64,000 nt of DNA, from the NCBI GenBank assembly GCA_963702845.1, contig OY969763.1, positions 1,184,001-1,248,000 on the forward strand. The letters are read 5' to 3'. Every line of letters begins with the position of its first letter. Within the stretch, counting starts at the first letter, position 1. Both the position numbers and the translations under genes were made by a program. Shown piece after piece: positions 42,549 to 49,766 of the stretch. A model generated the notes under the pieces. That model worked only from the letters and a program-made list of their open reading frames with translations, did no database searches and had not been told where the DNA came from. This DNA comes from an uncultured Verrucomicrobiae bacterium. GTDB taxonomy: Bacteria; Verrucomicrobiota; Verrucomicrobiia; Limisphaerales; Palsa-1400.

Positions 42549-43685
42549 CTACGAAGAGATGACCGAAGAAAGTTCGGCTAAGCGTCCGTCGCTTGTAATG
42601 CGAACGATGCAAAAATCAGCGCGTTGGCCAACGGCAATTTCTTTTTGCAAATCCATGAACTTCGAAGGTGCTTCGGCGGCGCGTTTCCAGGTTTCCTGCC
42701 ACGGCACATCCAGCATCTCCGCGGCACGAAAGACGCCGTCGATCGGGCGGAGCGCTGAACCCGCGAAATTTGTTTTGCCGGGTAATCGCACGACCTGGTC
42801 CTCACCCACTTCGAGTTCCATTGCGCCGAGTTTGTATTTGCCCGGTCCAGCGCCAGCGGCTGACATCGCGTCAGTCGTGTAGAAAATTTTGTCCAAGGTC
42901 CGATGCACCAATCGGAACAGCGTTGGTGACACGTGAATCTTATCGGGAATCAAACTGACTGTAAGTTCTGGTCGTTCGAAGATGCGCCAAAGAATGTTGT
43001 CGTGTCGGTCGAGGTCGCGAGGGCAACCGTTGCCGAGATGAGTGAAGCCCGTCGCGCCCGCGTCCACCGCTTGTTTGATTAATTCTGCTGAGGCGTTCGT
43101 GTGTCCCAAGCTGACTTTTGCGCCGCGCGACGCCGCGTACTTTATCGCACCAATGGCTCCGTTGCGCTCGGGAGAAATAGTGAGCAAAAGAGGATCGCCA
43201 GCTGCGATGTCGCATAGTTCGTCGATCGCGTGCGGAGTTGGATCGAGCATCAACGCAGGGTCGTGAGCGCCGTGGAACCCGGGCGCGCTCGACATAAAAG
43301 GTCCTTCAATTTGCCAGCCGGCAATCGCCGAACGAAGCTCGTTGGATTCGTCGCGGAGCTGTTTCGCGCGGCGAAATCGCGCCGTGAGCTTTTTCCAATC
43401 CGCCGTAATGAGCGTCAGGAAAAACTTTCCACAACCGTGTTCGCGAAGCTTCCGCGCAGCGAGCAGGAGGTCATCCGCCGTGAAGTCGTCCCGCTGAAAA
43501 TCGATCCCGCCGTAGCCGTTGATTTGCACGTCAAACAACGACGGCGCGATCCATAAAGAATCAGCGGGAGCATTGCTGCTCCCGCTGGTCAGATCTTCAA
43601 TTTTTGTAACGACCCCATTTTTCCAGGTGACACGCACCGGCTTGCGCGATGCGTAATGCCACGCTGCAATTTCGCCATCGTTCAT
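42549..43685 (-). CDS. nagA: N-acetylglucosamine-6-phosphate deacetylase family amidohydrolase
   Basis: DVQINGYGG, IEGPF, GAH, SLGHT, THLGN, DKIHV, TDAM, FAGS. Confidence 0.85.
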   Translation of the reverse strand: MNDGEIAAWHYASRKPVRVTWKNGVVTKIEDLTSGSSNAPADSLWIAPSLFDVQINGYGGIDFQRDDFTADDLLLAARKLREHGCGKFFLTLITADWKKLTARFRRAKQLRDESNELRSAIAGWQIEGPFMSSAPGFHGAHDPALMLDPTPHAIDELCDIAAGDPLLLTISPERNGAIGAIKYAASRGAKVSLGHTNASAELIKQAVDAGATGFTHLGNGCPRDLDRHDNILWRIFERPELTVSLIPDKIHVSPTLFRLVHRTLDKIFYTTDAMSAAGAGPGKYKLGAMELEVGEDQVVRLPGKTNFAGSALRPIDGVFRAAEMLDVPWQETWKRAAEAPSKFMDLQKEIAVGQRADFCIVRITSDGRLAELSSVISS

Positions 43686-43697
43686 TATTTGCGCAGC

Positions 43698-44357
43698 TTA
43701 GTAGTGCCAGGTCAATGCGAGCACGACGGCGTGGGTGAACAATTTGTCGGTGCGCACCTGCAAGCTGTTCTCTTTCCAGTCGTGGCTGGTTGTGCCGAGG
43801 AATTTGTATCCGAGCGCGACATGTGCATTATCGCAAAGTTTGTAGCGCAAGCCACCAAACGCCTGATAAGCGAAGGTGAAATCTGTGTCACTCAATTTGC
43901 CGGAAGGAAACTGCGCGTCGAACATCGCGGCTTCACCGCCTGCGCCAACTCCAAGGTATGGTGACAAACATTTTTCCGGACAGATTTTGTAAACGACGTT
44001 CAGCAAAAGCGGAATCTGGTAAAGGTCACCCTTGCCGCTTTCGTAGGTTTCTTCCGTAGCTGGTGGGGGCGGAGGAACAACATTACCCACCCGTTTCATG
44101 TGGTTCCAAATCACGCCGGTCTGCAATTGCAGGCCGAGATTCTCATTCAGCATCAATCCCCAGGTGAGGTCGGCGCGCACACCAGGATTGAAATGCGCTT
44201 TTTGACCTTCCGTATCCTTAAGTGTCTCGCCTTGCACAAACGAGGCGCCGGCATCAACACCGAAGTAGGATTTTGTAAAGTCGAGTGCCTGAACATTTAC
44301 AGTCGCCAAAATCGCGGCTCCTGCAATTACCGATTTGAAAATGGTGGTTTTGCTCAT
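43698..44357 (-). CDS. Outer-membrane beta-barrel protein (OmpA/OmpW-like)
   Basis: Signal peptide, SPYLGVGAG, FAYQAFGGLRY, aromatic C-terminus. Confidence 0.85.
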   Translation of the reverse strand: MSKTTIFKSVIAGAAILATVNVQALDFTKSYFGVDAGASFVQGETLKDTEGQKAHFNPGVRADLTWGLMLNENLGLQLQTGVIWNHMKRVGNVVPPPPPATEETYESGKGDLYQIPLLLNVVYKICPEKCLSPYLGVGAGGEAAMFDAQFPSGKLSDTDFTFAYQAFGGLRYKLCDNAHVALGYKFLGTTSHDWKENSLQVRTDKLFTHAVVLALTWHY

Positions 44358-44560
44358 AGGGCGCAACTATCGTACGCTTGCGTTGAGTTGACAAGGTGCT
44401 TTTTTTGGAACCTTCGATCGAACCTGTGGACTGGTGGCGTGAATCGGTTTCCTTCTGCAACACGCATAAATAAATATTGACAGGTTTTTCACTACATACT
44501 ATTAGCAGTGTTTGCTGCGGGTGCATACTACAAGGCAAGGTGTAGCTGCGGCGACCGTTA

Positions 44561-46306
44561 ATGAAAAGGAAGGCCGATGGGCAGTTAAATTTGCTTCCGC
44601 TTGTTCCACAGCAGGCTGAATCTGAGCTTGTAGCTAAGTTGAACCCGGGCACGGCGCAACCGGAGTCGAAACCCGAACAGAGCCTGGTTCTCGTCGTCAA
44701 ACGCGACGGCACTTCCGAACCATTCAACAAAACGCGGATAACCCTCGCTCTCGAAAGCGCTTTTAAAGCCGTCCGCGATATTCCGGTAGACACAGCAATG
44801 ACGGATTCGATGATGGAATCCGTCACAAATCTTGCCGAGAAAATTTCCAAACGCGTTCTTGAAGACACTGCTCAAGGAACGACGCTCGATGTTGAATACA
44901 TTCAGGACGTTGTCGAAAACCAGTTGATGTGCGACGGCTATCTCACTGAGGCGCGCCGCTACATTCTCTATCGCGAAGATCGGCGCAAAATCCGCGAACA
45001 AACGCCAAGCGCACTTCCAGAAGCACCGGCCGCACCCGTTGAAGAAACGCCTAACACAAATTTATTGCTGAAGGTGATTTATGCGGAAGCGCTTCCTGAC
45101 GCTTCGTCTGCAAATGACCTTGCGGCAAGTCTCCGTCGCAATTTCAGCTACGCGATTCAGGATGCGGTTCACAACGACCAACTATCGCCGGAATTGCTGA
45201 TGTTCGATTTAGAACATCTTTCCAGTGCATTGCAGTTGGATCGGGACCGATTGATTTCTCGGGCGGGGGTTGAATGGCTTTACGCAAACTGTCTTGCGCG
45301 TGAGTGCGACCATTCTATCGAAACGCCGCAGTATTTCTGGATGCGCGTGGCGATGGCTATGGCCGCCAGCGAGGACGACCGGGAAGCGCGTGCGCTGGAG
45401 TTTTATGAAGTCCTGTCCACGTTGCGGTTTTTACCATCGGAAAAACTTCTTCGGACCAGCGGCCGTTCCAGCGCGATCGCCAATCGGATGCTGGCCGACG
45501 TTGAGGACTTCGATGCTTCTGCTCGTGTGGCTGGCCATGTAAATATCGCGGCGCACATCCAGAACGGGACGCTCGATGAATTGCTGCTCTATGGAACCAT
45601 TTCGAGCGCGGTCCGCTTGCTCGATAACGCGGTGGAGTTAGCCGGCGCGAAGTTGAATGCCGCAGCTATTCACGCGCGCGAATACCGCGACATTGCGCTC
45701 GGTATCGTCGGGTACGAAAAAGCGCTGGAGTCACTCAATATTTCTGCCGATACCGATGCAGCGATGAATTACGTCGAACGCGCCGCGGAAAGCATCGCGT
45801 ATTACACAACGCTCGCGTCCGCCACTCTGGCTGCTGAGCGCGGTTCTTTCCCGGGACATTCCGATTCGAATTGGAACATCGGTGCACTACCATTTGAATC
45901 GTTGAAACTTTTGCCCGCGCAAAGCGGCGGTTCACCCAACGTGAATTTCTCAAAGGAATGGCTGGCAGTGCGTGCTGCCGTGCGGCAGTACGGAATGCGA
46001 AATGGCCACATCCTTGCGCTCACGCCTGCGCAAGTGATCGAAAAAATAATCAGCGATGCCGCACCGCGTTTATCATTCAGCGCGCAACTCAATCGCCTCG
46101 TGCGCTGTCGCAAGTGGATTGATGGCAGGGTGTGGATCACGTTGCCCGAAGACCTTGCCGGTCCCGACCTGGAGCAGGCCTATTTGCTGGCTCAACAGCT
46201 CGGCATTCGTCCGTTTACGTTGCCGGTTCGTGTCACGATTTCAGAACCATTCACCGACGCTGCCGCTGCGACGAAGGTTCTGAAGAGCATTGAAAGATCT
46301 TCGTAA
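44561..46306 (+). CDS. ATP-cone + degenerate, internally deleted ribonucleotide reductase alpha-subunit-like protein (predicted catalytically dead)
   Basis: ATP-cone VVKRDGTSEPFNKTRI...IQDVVENQLM..ARRYILYRE; NrdA-like ETPQYFWMRVAM, VRLLDN, LAAERG, GMRN, KWID; no SSC, NLCxE, APT, YY or C-terminal Cys pair. Confidence 0.85.
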   Translation: MKRKADGQLNLLPLVPQQAESELVAKLNPGTAQPESKPEQSLVLVVKRDGTSEPFNKTRITLALESAFKAVRDIPVDTAMTDSMMESVTNLAEKISKRVLEDTAQGTTLDVEYIQDVVENQLMCDGYLTEARRYILYREDRRKIREQTPSALPEAPAAPVEETPNTNLLLKVIYAEALPDASSANDLAASLRRNFSYAIQDAVHNDQLSPELLMFDLEHLSSALQLDRDRLISRAGVEWLYANCLARECDHSIETPQYFWMRVAMAMAASEDDREARALEFYEVLSTLRFLPSEKLLRTSGRSSAIANRMLADVEDFDASARVAGHVNIAAHIQNGTLDELLLYGTISSAVRLLDNAVELAGAKLNAAAIHAREYRDIALGIVGYEKALESLNISADTDAAMNYVERAAESIAYYTTLASATLAAERGSFPGHSDSNWNIGALPFESLKLLPAQSGGSPNVNFSKEWLAVRAAVRQYGMRNGHILALTPAQVIEKIISDAAPRLSFSAQLNRLVRCRKWIDGRVWITLPEDLAGPDLEQAYLLAQQLGIRPFTLPVRVTISEPFTDAAAATKVLKSIERSS

Positions 46307-46307
46307 G

Positions 46308-47552
46308 CTATTGCGCGATTGTCATCAGCGCGTGCTCTCGTTCCAGCAACGTGGGATGCGAGTAATAGAAGCCACTGTAATACGGATGCGGCGTCAGGTT
46401 GCTGAGATTTTTTTCGTTCAACTTGCGTATGGCGCCGATCAACGATCGCACTTCAGACATCACGCCTGCCGCGTAGGCGTCGGCCTCATACTCGTACTTT
46501 CGCGAGAACATGTGGGACATCGGCGAAATCCAAAACGTCACTGTTCCCGCAAGCAATCCGAACAATAGAAACGCCGGCACGACACTCAACGTCGAAAATC
46601 CAAACGCTTGATAAAACCATGCCTGCTTGGCCAGGACAGAGATGATAAAAAAACCAATCAACGTCGCGACTGCCGACCAAATCATCGTCTTGGGAATGTG
46701 ACGTTTTTTGTAATGGCCGATTTCGTGGGCCAGAACGGCTTCCAGTTCGGTTGGCTGTAGTTGCTCCACCAGCGTGTCAAATAGAACAATTTTCCGGAAA
46801 TGACCGAACCCGGTGAAAAACGCGTTAGAATGGCGCGATCGTTTGCTGCCGTCCATCACTTGAATGTCTTTGGCCCTGAAACCCGCGCGTTCACCCAATC
46901 CCAGCAACTGCTCCCGCAACGGCCCTTCTGGTAACGGAGAAAACTTGTTGAACAGCGGCATGATCACGATCGGCGCGAGAACGAGCATGATGAGTTGAAA
47001 CACCATCATGCAACCCCACGCCCATAACCACCACCAGTCACCCAACCAATCGACCAGTTTGAAAATCAACCAAAGCAGCGGAAACCCAATGGTGATGCCG
47101 AGCAACAAACCTTTGATGCGATCCATCCAGAACGTTTTCGTAGTCGTCGTGTTGAACCCGAACCGCTGCTCCAAATTAAACTGTGAATACCAGTCAAACG
47201 GCAGGTCAGGCACGGTGAGTAAAATACTGGTTGCCACAACAAATGCCGCGCCGGCCCACATTGCATGGCCAAGCGAATTCTGAAACACGTTGTAAAACCA
47301 GGGGAGAACGCCACTGAACAAGACAAGCGCCAACACGATCACGCTCCACGTGAGTTCAACGCAGTGGAACTTACTTTTCGCGAGTGTGTAGTCGACGGAC
47401 TTTCTGTAATTCTCCGTCGTGACGACGGCTTTGAATGCTTCGGGCACCGCCGCGGCATTCGCGCGGACATGTTTTTGATTGAGAAGTTCCAGCCAGAGCT
47501 GCGCGAGCCAACGCGCGCCGAGCAGCACGGCGAATATGATCATTACAGTCAC
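46308..47552 (-). CDS. M48 (Ste24-like) zinc metallopeptidase
   Basis: DGSKRSRHSNAFFTG, AHEIGH, EYEAD, SHP. Confidence 0.95.
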   Translation of the reverse strand: MTVMIIFAVLLGARWLAQLWLELLNQKHVRANAAAVPEAFKAVVTTENYRKSVDYTLAKSKFHCVELTWSVIVLALVLFSGVLPWFYNVFQNSLGHAMWAGAAFVVATSILLTVPDLPFDWYSQFNLEQRFGFNTTTTKTFWMDRIKGLLLGITIGFPLLWLIFKLVDWLGDWWWLWAWGCMMVFQLIMLVLAPIVIMPLFNKFSPLPEGPLREQLLGLGERAGFRAKDIQVMDGSKRSRHSNAFFTGFGHFRKIVLFDTLVEQLQPTELEAVLAHEIGHYKKRHIPKTMIWSAVATLIGFFIISVLAKQAWFYQAFGFSTLSVVPAFLLFGLLAGTVTFWISPMSHMFSRKYEYEADAYAAGVMSEVRSLIGAIRKLNEKNLSNLTPHPYYSGFYYSHPTLLEREHALMTIAQ

Positions 47553-47576
47553 AGGGAAACCCTACACCGGATCGTG

Positions 47577-49766
47577 TTACCTGTTACTCCGTCCCGCGCC
47601 TTTTCGTTCGGGGCGCTTTCGTCCACGCAACTCTTCCTGGCTTGCCTCGCGTGCAATTTGGAAATCCACCTGCTTTTTGAAGCTATCGACCTTGAAAACC
47701 TGCACCACGACTTTGTCGCCAAGCTTGATCACGCGACGCGTTCGCCGTCCGACCAGATGATTTCGAGCGGAGTCGAACACAAAGAAGTCATCGTGCATGG
47801 AAGATAGGTGCACCAACCCACTCATGCCGAGATCGGTAACATCCACGAAGAAACCAAAGTTTCGCACGTCGGTGACGAGCGCCTGATATTTGTGCAGCGG
47901 CCCGTCTTTCAACTGCGCCTTCAAAAACGCGAACATCTTCACGTCTTTGCTGTCTCGCTCGGCGTCGGCAGAGTTGCGTTCGGTTTCCGAGATGTGATCG
48001 GTAATCGATTTCAACGCGAACCCGACTGCGCTGTTCTTGTTAAAGAGCGCGCGATGCACGAGCAAATCCGCGTAACGACGAATCGGCGAAGTGAAATGCG
48101 TGTATTTGGCTTTGGCCAATCCATAGTGGCCGATCGGCTCAACCGCATAGCGTGCGCGCATCAGTGACTTGAGAAAACCGATTTTCAACGCGTTGCCGAT
48201 CGGGATCGTTCCCAGTCGTTGCAAAAGTTTTTGAACCTCGGGACGATGCGTCAAATTTCCACATGGTATATTGTGGCTGACGACTTCCTCGCGATATTCC
48301 TGCAACCGCTCCTCGTTCGGAGGTTCATGAATGCGATGTGGCGCTGGGCGACGCATCGAAATTAGTTTTGTCGCCACCGCCTCGTTGGCGAGCAGCATGT
48401 ATTCTTCGATGAGTTGATGGGAAACGTCGTTTTCCATTTTCTCGACGAACAACACGCGCCCATGCGCGTCGAGCCGAATTTTGTTTTCTGGAAAATCCAA
48501 ATCCAGCGAACCCGCTTTGAATCGGGCGCGGCGAATCTTTTGCGCCATTTGATGCGCGTCATGCAGCATCTGTTCGACGGGATCGCCATTCCGCGGCTTC
48601 TGCAGGACGCCGAGCGCTTCTTTGTAAGTAAACCGCCGCTTTGATCGAATTACCGATTCGTAAAATTTCGTCTGCAAAACCGCGCCGCTATCCGAAAGCA
48701 AAAACTCCGCGCACTTGGTCAACCGGTCCACGCCGGGTTTGAGCGAACAAAGCTCATTGCTCAATGCCTCTGGCAGCATTGGGATAACGCGATCGACGAG
48801 GTAGGTGGAGTTGCCGCGTTTACCGGCCTCTTCGTCCAACGCCGTCCCCGGTGCGACGTAGTGCGATACGTCCGCAATGTGAACCCAAAGTTTCCAACGA
48901 CCGTCACCGGCAGGTTGCAAACAAATCGCGTCGTCGAAGTCCTTTGCGTCATCTGGATCGATCGTCACGACATTATGCCGGCGCGCATCGACACGTCCTC
49001 GCATTTCCTCTTCAGTCGGTTCGCCAAGCGGTCGCGCCTTTGCAATCGTATTGGCCTCGTGCAAAACATTCCGTGCGAAGTGCAGCGGCAAATTGTATTG
49101 GCGCAGCACCGACAACATGTCGACGCCTTCTTCATCCGGCTTGCCCAGCACTTCGACGATTTCGCCTTCGGGATTGCTGGAACGCGATAGCCACTCGCGA
49201 AGTTCCACGACCACCTTGTCGCCAACCAGCGGTTCGCGTCCGACATCTTTTGCCGGTGGCACATAAATGTCGTGCGGAATGCGCGGATCATCCGGAATGA
49301 CAAACCAAAATTGCGGCGACTTTTGCAGGGTGCCGACCAGTTGCACACGCTTTCTTTCGAGAATGCGCACAACCGAACCGCGCATCTCACTTTCGCGTTC
49401 GTGTGGTCCGCGCCGTGCGCCGTGCGCTCGAACCTCGCGTCGCACCAATACGCGATCGCCATGTAGCGCAGTGCCGGTTTGGTTCTCAGCAATGACAATT
49501 TCCTTTACGCCTTCTTGTTCAGGCAGAAGAAAGCCTTTCCCTGCGCGATTCATCCGAATGGTGCCGGGAACAAGATCTGCCTCGCGTGAGATAATGAAGC
49601 GGTCGCCTTTGGTGCGGAAGATCTGTCCGCTGTGCTCCATCTGTTTCAACGTTTTTTCAAGCTCTACAAATTCGTGATGCCGTAGGCCAAGCGGGGCGAC
49701 GAGTTGATGGGCGGTTGAGGGACGATAATCTTTTCGTCCGAGAAGCTTTAGAATCTTCTGTTGCAT
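47577..49766 (-). CDS. rnr: Ribonuclease R
   Basis: TIDPDDAKDFDDA, HIADVSHYV, YTHFTSPIRRYADL, C-terminal S1 domain. Confidence 0.96.
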   Translation of the reverse strand: MQQKILKLLGRKDYRPSTAHQLVAPLGLRHHEFVELEKTLKQMEHSGQIFRTKGDRFIISREADLVPGTIRMNRAGKGFLLPEQEGVKEIVIAENQTGTALHGDRVLVRREVRAHGARRGPHERESEMRGSVVRILERKRVQLVGTLQKSPQFWFVIPDDPRIPHDIYVPPAKDVGREPLVGDKVVVELREWLSRSSNPEGEIVEVLGKPDEEGVDMLSVLRQYNLPLHFARNVLHEANTIAKARPLGEPTEEEMRGRVDARRHNVVTIDPDDAKDFDDAICLQPAGDGRWKLWVHIADVSHYVAPGTALDEEAGKRGNSTYLVDRVIPMLPEALSNELCSLKPGVDRLTKCAEFLLSDSGAVLQTKFYESVIRSKRRFTYKEALGVLQKPRNGDPVEQMLHDAHQMAQKIRRARFKAGSLDLDFPENKIRLDAHGRVLFVEKMENDVSHQLIEEYMLLANEAVATKLISMRRPAPHRIHEPPNEERLQEYREEVVSHNIPCGNLTHRPEVQKLLQRLGTIPIGNALKIGFLKSLMRARYAVEPIGHYGLAKAKYTHFTSPIRRYADLLVHRALFNKNSAVGFALKSITDHISETERNSADAERDSKDVKMFAFLKAQLKDGPLHKYQALVTDVRNFGFFVDVTDLGMSGLVHLSSMHDDFFVFDSARNHLVGRRTRRVIKLGDKVVVQVFKVDSFKKQVDFQIAREASQEELRGRKRPERKGAGRSNR

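Follow-up and report, generated by a model that had tools for sequence, protein, structure and literature searches.

The window, that is the whole 64,000-nucleotide stretch of DNA from an uncultured Verrucomicrobiae bacterium that was analysed here, carries the gene for P0001, a catalytically dead relic of NrdA, the large (alpha) subunit of class I ribonucleotide reductase (RNR). Its frame is uninterrupted, as an earlier sequence-only reading had stated, and is preceded by a putative promoter and two NrdR-like boxes (Table 1). On either side (42549-44366 and 46308-49766) lie genes for a NagA-like deacetylase, an outer-membrane beta-barrel, an M48 peptidase and an RNase R-type nuclease; neither nrdB nor nrdR is adjacent, as had also been noted. 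Around the dead copies in the host's family no neighbour is conserved beyond genus or subclade, and the flanks of P0001 are syntenic within its own genus only.

Table 1. Features of the P0001 locus, in window coordinates
Feature	Position	Strand	Basis
Putative promoter, TTGACA, 17-nt spacer, TATTAG	44477..44505	+	Architecture anchored in 18/20 dead-copy upstream regions
NrdR-like box 1, over the -10 element	44496..44511	.	Score 11.8, matrix trained without genus g1
NrdR-like box 2, 16-nt spacer	44528..44543	.	Score 3.8, weak in host; stronger in most relatives
Catalytically dead NrdA relic P0001	44561..46306	+	581 aa, no internal stop
ATP-cone, two-dATP type, with cone-cone interface residues	44690..44998	+	aa 44-146; best solved matches 5IM3, 5OLK
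All-alpha domain of RNR alpha	45047..45463	+	aa 163-301; PF00317; ends at eroded substrate-phosphate motif
23-aa junction replacing 240 aa	45464..45532	+	Alignment to intact NrdA; modelled helix aa 304-314
Second half of alpha/beta barrel	45533..46216	+	aa 325-552, equivalents of strands F-J; partial PF02867, model and fold match
New conserved C-terminal helix replacing the CxxC tail	46256..46294	+	aa 566-578; alignment of 17 proteins

Pfam places the ATP-cone at residues 44-142, in agreement with the span of about 44-146 proposed earlier, and Ribonuc_red_lgN (PF00317) at 233-303, while Ribonuc_red_lgC (PF02867) matches only in part, at residues 325-496, corresponding to positions 230-395 of the 523 in the profile. 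The best NCBIfam models are the class Ia NrdA models PRK12365 and PRK07207, at 270-276 bits against cut-offs of 965-1350, and the closest solved relative by both sequence and fold is the NrdA of P. aeruginosa (5IM3). Compared with the intact NrdA of G034, a genome of the same order as the host, P0001 has lost its inner cone (102 residues reduced to 30, net -72), a late 68-residue insert (97 to 29, net -68) and, between the conserved glycines G301 and G325, a segment of 240 residues for which 23 now stand (net -217). This last deletion, in frame and of more than 200 residues as first supposed, takes the first half-barrel, the specificity and dimer helices and the finger loop. According to PMC9531940 the RNR barrel is made of two halves of five strands each, with the finger loop connecting them; the deletion removes the first half together with that loop, so that P0001 consists of a cone, a helical domain and the second half-barrel. 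The idea that the scaffold had been kept is therefore right for the helical domain and the second half-barrel and wrong for the first half of the barrel.

At least 17 proteins, P0001 and 16 others, have in common the same deep junction and the new C-terminal helix, in which D566, A568, A570, K572, V573 and K575 are invariant in all 17 and which is modelled, with low confidence, at residues 567-580. The search for homologues sharing the deletion had been set beforehand as a test, and a misassembly at about 45430-45545 had been named as grounds for abandoning the reading; since the identical junction recurs in the 16 other proteins, all from independent assemblies, misassembly is excluded in practice. 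Contigs from four public runs held pieces of the gene only, none of them spanning the junction. A structural model built from 106 aligned rows reached a pLDDT of 86.2 and a pTM of 0.71, with 363 residues aligning to an RNR alpha (Z 30.8, rmsd 3.6) and about 365 to alpha chains of 675-740 residues (Z 24-31); as 50 of the rows are intact NrdAs, this model leans to the RNR fold. The 17-row alignment gave a poor fold (pLDDT 51.6), and a search of the ESM Atlas returned RNR-barrel look-alikes only.

None of the catalytic apparatus survives in P0001. In E. coli numbering, which we take to apply to P0001 by motif, equivalents of T209, C225, loop 2, N437/C439/E441, C462, APTAT, Y730/Y731 and the C-terminal CxxC are all absent, and alignment puts no catalytic cysteine in register; most of these losses the earlier reading had claimed. 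T209 corresponds to E294 in the eroded substrate-phosphate motif, the segment carrying the finger-loop triad is deleted, and the redox pair is gone, C225 with its region and C462 by replacement with Arg; the retained second half-barrel is thus without C462, APTAT and YY. With its first half deleted, the ten-stranded barrel of an active NrdA is no longer there, and none of the five features by which we defined an active class I RNR alpha was found. No copy in the host's family (0/20) has the full triad, and at least 57 proteins without it occur among 120 matches listed of 635. In these 57 listed dead proteins one or the other redox cysteine survives singly in 16 and 25, the less eroded relatives, the Y731 equivalent in none, and no dead protein listed has a CxxC tail. 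Could such proteins have acquired a catalytic activity of a new kind, outside ribonucleotide reduction? The strong constraint described below and a few family-specific conserved positions (E53, N56, P292) would fit, but no new invariant polar cluster has formed, all 25 invariant columns also occurring in intact NrdA, and the active-site cavity is half deleted; we give this reading very little credence indeed.

The host is a soil-type bacterium whose genome is a single contig, 89.8% complete. Besides P0001, its only PF02867 gene encodes a class II NrdJ of 1043 residues with intact motifs, scoring above the PRK06556 cut-off; no NrdB, NrdD or second NrdA was found in this genome at that completeness. 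NrdJ is the working RNR of the host, so the P0001 gene is an orphaned class I gene and not a duplicate, and the description of P0001 as a paralogue beside a real NrdA has to be given up, along with NrdA and NrdB as interaction targets, as both are absent. A recent private duplication was rejected on the same ground, there being no intact nrdA in the genome, and because the clade is family-wide. Host ATP-cones number three, in NrdR, P0001 and a kinase-like open reading frame; host NrdJ has none. The kinase-like frame (L007:406-1926; G000 C1 near 1354960) fuses a cone to a P-loop domain, presumably of the uridine-kinase type, and seems to shift near its C-terminus.

Of the family's 31 genomes, 20 have a match, spread over 9 of the 10 genera; among the 18 genomes that are at least 90% complete the count is 11. 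Every one of the 20 matches is dead. The other 11 genomes, near-complete ones among them, have no such gene, and in two of these, G012 and G017, no second cone was found. NrdB is missing from all 31 (64-98% complete), while among 30 genomes from the rest of the order the identical search recovers it in 8; NrdR is present in 31/31 and NrdD in 1/31. The nrdJ loci retrieved number 21, of which 18 come from carriers, and each has intact NrdJ motifs. The expectation that each carrier would also have a complete nrdAB or nrdJ was thus borne out for NrdJ in 18 of 20 carriers, and nrdB failed it throughout; of the remaining two carriers, G025 has an NrdJ divided between contig ends, and G019 (78% complete) yielded none. 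From each of the 20 copies at least 48 residues of the specificity/dimer segment are missing. Further losses are nested, and each lineage has shortened the retained body in its own way; 19 of 20 frames run through to the C-terminus. One copy, G025 L048:999-3062, has lost the ATP-cone in frame; another, G014 L051:6324-9150, has a one-base frameshift near codon 665 that may be a sequencing error, the rest being intact. Named relatives are labelled Verrucomicrobiota, some of them Limisphaerales.

Maximum-likelihood dN/dS of the dead copies is 0.156 in the host's genus, g1 (three members); for three further genera the values are 0.242, 0.303 and 0.130. By comparison, nrdJ gives 0.065-0.079 and intact nrdA 0.049; dead copies thus evolve at 2-4 times the ratio of nrdJ and also above that of intact nrdA, and deletions are still accumulating. 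Between G000 and G002 (dS 1.4) the ratio is 0.08 in the cone, 0.10 in the helical domain, 0.08 in the barrel remnant, 0.20 in the C-terminal part and 0.10 in the tail, in none of which pN reached pS in 300 bootstraps, while the first 43 residues look neutral. On these values, selection on the dead copies has been relaxed yet is still strong, and it operates after the deletion. An overlapping gene or RNA is unlikely to lie behind the conservation, as synonymous sites are near saturation and the locus has no Rfam match. Synonymous divergence of the dead gene is about twice that of nrdJ, which suggests low expression.

An open frame under purifying selection after the loss of catalysis would class P0001, as judged from its sequence, as a pseudoenzyme and not a pseudogene. 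The earlier preference for a pseudoenzyme over random decay holds, given the shared deletion, a dN/dS far below 1 in every folded region and the lack of catalytic cysteines. A subtler form of decay, in which an expressed relic on its way out is selected only against misfolding, would explain the nested deletions, the 11 of 31 genomes without the gene, the single frameshift, the single cone loss and the relaxed dN/dS. We consider it very unlikely, as the frame has been kept over a dS of 1.4-2.1 within g1 and across the whole family, a new motif has been gained and fixed, a second clade has independently kept the gene, and the neighbours have been rearranged around a promoter that stayed conserved, although losing that promoter would have been an easy exit.

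The genera are monophyletic in the gene tree of the family's dead copies, and it is on this monophyly only that its congruence rests. The P0001 clade is sister to the intact NrdAs of the same order and nested in the NrdAz descent, and with it branch full-length dead copies without NrdB from another family, f81 (G245, P0102; G303 is partial). A search for further origins, covering the phylum and representatives at 50% identity, added 144 representatives, scored as 23 dead, 110 live and 11 unclear. Two of the 23 (P0251, P0257) lie apart. A second dead clade, comprising G699, six representatives and a further one in which the triad is kept, has three-cone NrdAs of another order as its sister group, and a single origin of both dead clades was rejected (AU p 4.4e-6; LG+G4, quick tree, 23 rows, groups picked after the trees had been seen). 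The second dead clade arose independently, so that dead NrdA has arisen at least twice. Low-scoring NrdA-like proteins of 840-860 residues from another family were also considered as dead copies and turned out to be intact enzymes with NrdB.

Taken by sequence, P0001 is almost certainly a former class Ia NrdA that was orphaned when nrdB was lost and NrdJ became the sole RNR, and that was then kept as a pseudoenzyme. The f81 copies, full-length, dead and without NrdB, suggest that nrdB and the riboswitch would have gone first, followed by catalytic erosion and then by the deletions.

Among the parts kept is the ATP-cone. Its best matches among solved structures are the two-dATP cones of 5IM3 and 5OLK, and the residues described for the cone-cone interface and internal salt bridge of L. 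blandensis (D73, M80, K89, I92, I93 and R95; PMC5794259) align, assuming a three-residue offset between chain and paper numbering, to D116, M123, R132, I135, L136 and R138 of P0001; R102 corresponds to R145 by spacing only. Together these seven positions are 95-98% conserved in the 57 listed dead proteins, while Asp76, a residue named in the same paper, aligns to a Glu. In P. aeruginosa NrdA only the outer cone is described as binding ligand, the inner being non-binding (PMC9669993); among the family's dead copies the outer cone is present in 19 of 20, and the inner cone has been deleted in most lineages. From these alignments P0001 appears to have kept a two-dATP cone with an intact cone-cone interface, which would bind nucleotide.

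We think that P0001 has probably been reused as a nucleotide-sensing switch. A different view would make the cone secondary and have the helical domain and half-barrel maintain an old protein contact of NrdA, for example with the replication or redox machinery. In g1 the barrel remnant and the tail are constrained as much as the cone, and a new invariant C-terminal helix has arisen; the G025 copy lost its cone and is still constrained (branch dN/dS about 0.3), so that the body may matter without it; and dead herpesviral R1 proteins are reported to act through protein contacts (PMC5469499). Against such moonlighting, which we think unlikely, the cone is among the most conserved regions in most pairs within genera and is missing from a single copy, and the body has been reduced differently lineage by lineage. 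The cone could conversely be all that matters, soaking up dATP as a passive dATP/ATP buffer and so delaying re-repression by NrdR, with the rest serving solubility only. The seemingly intact two-nucleotide cone and the NrdR-like boxes agree with this, yet a stop codon after the cone would have sufficed, and 19 of 20 frames are open to the end with constrained C-termini; the apparently low expression also speaks against it, and we find it improbable.

The promoter, too, is conserved among the dead copies. Upstream regions of the dead copies are otherwise dissimilar, and 18 of 20 contain the pattern TTGACN, 16-18 nt, TATTAG, with a 16-bp palindrome covering the -10 element and a second palindrome 15-16 bp further on. 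C4 and G13 of box 1 are invariant in all 18 anchored promoters. Published accounts give 15-16 bp as the usual spacing of NrdR boxes (PMC12051234) and a conserved C...G nine positions apart (PMC9110341). Box 1 has two mismatches to the published NrdR core pattern, host box 2 is not significant alone (65 of 200 shuffles are as good), and matches of single promoters to the published pattern are individually weak and mostly not significant. When 26 upstream regions were scanned over their last 200 nt with the strict published pair pattern, no short-spacer pair matched; that stretch does not reach the boxes of the intact genes. A generic sigma-70 scan did not call the promoter at 44477..44505 because it demands a T at position 6 of the -10 element.

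Seventeen genomes of the family offer enough sequence upstream of nrdJ, and in 16 of them an NrdR-type matrix trained on dead-copy promoters outside g1 picks out a strong tandem pair there (0 of 30 shuffles in each). The matrix also finds such a pair upstream of 4 of 5 intact nrdA genes and one nrdD; at two nrdJ loci outside the family it finds no pair. When pairs are ranked across the host genome, that of nrdJ comes 5th, one just upstream of nrdR 9th and that of P0001 15th. By its promoter sequence, P0001 may stay in the NrdR regulon. In intact nrdA genes the boxes lie 340-430 nt upstream, and 3 of 5 such loci of the order have a cobalamin riboswitch; at the dead loci the start codon follows within about 45 nt of box 2, and no riboswitch occurs (0/20). 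Having lost the B12-riboswitch leader and kept the NrdR-box promoter, the gene would be transcribed together with nrdJ when dATP is low, free of B12 control.

For the nucleotide-sensing switch we propose the following mode of action. P0001 could bind neither substrate nor specificity effectors, nor form a normal alpha2 dimer; since the normal dimer helices are gone, dimerisation would have to proceed through the cones, and dATP versus ATP would move the protein between a monomer and a cone-linked dimer. The helical domain and half-barrel would be the output surface, engaging either NrdJ, which has no cone in the host, or NrdR; both the choice of partner and the sign of the effect are conjecture. 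To this picture of a dATP/ATP-gated, self-associating pseudoenzyme in the NrdR regulon we give roughly even chances. More tentatively, and with distinctly less confidence, we speculate that an orphaned class I RNR alpha has on several occasions become, in bacteria, a dATP/ATP sensor that acts in trans to regulate dNTP supply, operating through NrdJ or NrdR and rewired from B12-repressed to NrdR-only control. In the genus of the host it would have been pared down to a cone and a free half-barrel with a new C-terminal helix, and the half-barrel may self-pair into a symmetric pseudo-barrel. The sensor reading is favoured by G699, in which the dead gene lies directly upstream of a class II RNR-like gene; against it count the absence of the gene from 11 of 31 genomes, the cone-less G025 copy, a dN/dS above that of nrdJ and intact nrdA together with the continuing deletions, the weak host box 2 and mostly non-significant matches of single promoters to the published NrdR pattern, the lack of a conserved neighbour and the G014 frameshift.

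The G699 genome, one contig and 99% complete, has no NrdB and no NrdD. Its dead three-cone NrdA (L222:1961-5041) sits behind tandem boxes, and the following gene (L222:5109-7599) encodes a class II RNR of the monomeric, RTPR-like type with its own ATP-cone; as this enzyme has a cone already, a cone supplied in trans cannot be the general explanation.

A role in defence was also considered, in which the dead alpha captures class I subunits of phages and poisons their dNTP synthesis. Such a decoy would cost the host nothing, as it has no NrdB; induction on dATP shortage would fit, and phages carry related nrdA genes (134 records, all below 60% identity). On the other hand, the dimer helices are deleted in 20/20 family copies, g1 has also lost a further helix, which we take to be part of the beta-tail groove, and the gene is single-copy, vertically inherited and without conserved neighbours; we hold the decoy to be highly improbable.

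P0001 can be set beside several known systems. Its ancestor type is the NrdAz class Ia NrdA (P. aeruginosa 5IM3; PRK07207/PRK12365), with which it shares the outer two-dATP cone, the all-alpha domain and the second half-barrel, and from which it differs in lacking the catalytic and radical-path residues, the CxxC tail, the specificity/dimer helices, the first half-barrel and a partner NrdB. The R1 proteins of betaherpesviruses (HCMV UL45, MCMV M45) are likewise RNR large subunits kept after catalytic loss and reused via protein contacts, as described in PMC5469499; those are viral and act on host RIP1 signalling, whereas P0001 is bacterial, chromosomal and has kept its ATP-cone. Its cone may also be likened to that of the NrdR repressor, in which a cone with two nucleotide sites is described as driving an oligomer switch (PMC9110341), but P0001 has no Zn-ribbon or other DNA-binding domain, and the host has its own NrdR. 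Finally, PRK06948 (NCBIfam NF005401, listed in a table of PMC4981469) is by name a "ribonucleotide reductase-like protein" of about 600 residues, as P0001 is in size and resemblance; membership was rejected at 47.2 bits against a cut-off of 906, and the nearest relative that PRK06948 has in a 21-genome sample of the phylum belongs to the class II type and has its finger motif intact, so its descent is different.

In the literature searched no bacterial dead NrdA is described; supplements or RNR databases beyond it could list such sequences. The claim that no family like P0001 had been described thus holds for bacteria within that literature and needs qualifying for the betaherpesvirus R1 proteins treated in PMC5469499, UL45/M45 being the only precedent found for dead RNR large subunits. 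The P0001 group is a real bacterial family of RNR pseudoenzymes, and P0001 shows it at its most reduced. RNR belongs to the textbook essential enzymes. A selected, vertically inherited family of dead copies with at least two origins implies either that NrdA has a non-catalytic role so far unrecognised or that class II users control their dNTPs at a further, new level. The graded series, from full-length dead copies through those without dimer helices to the half-barrel, maps which parts the retained job needs, and P0001 offers a natural half of the RNR barrel for work on fold evolution. There is also a practical consequence: full-length dead members pass curated NrdA cut-offs (G245 L163:5205-8132 and P0102 pass both PRK07207 and TIGR02506), so that inventories of RNRs count them as active.

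Some smaller observations were made along the way. In four genomes, which belong to three genera, the dead nrdA is followed directly downstream by a 6S RNA (L040:8832-9015, L043:5000-5181, L045:6001-6183 and L044:3459-3642). Two tandem box-like matrix matches occur at G000 C1:2054989-2055221, at the start of a gene that, from its N-terminal motif, we take to be SMC-like. In G021 (L053:4756-7005) an NrdD carries an NrdA-type N-terminal leader and cone behind tandem boxes and a cobalamin riboswitch, and it looks as if the 5' part of an nrdA has been recruited onto nrdD.
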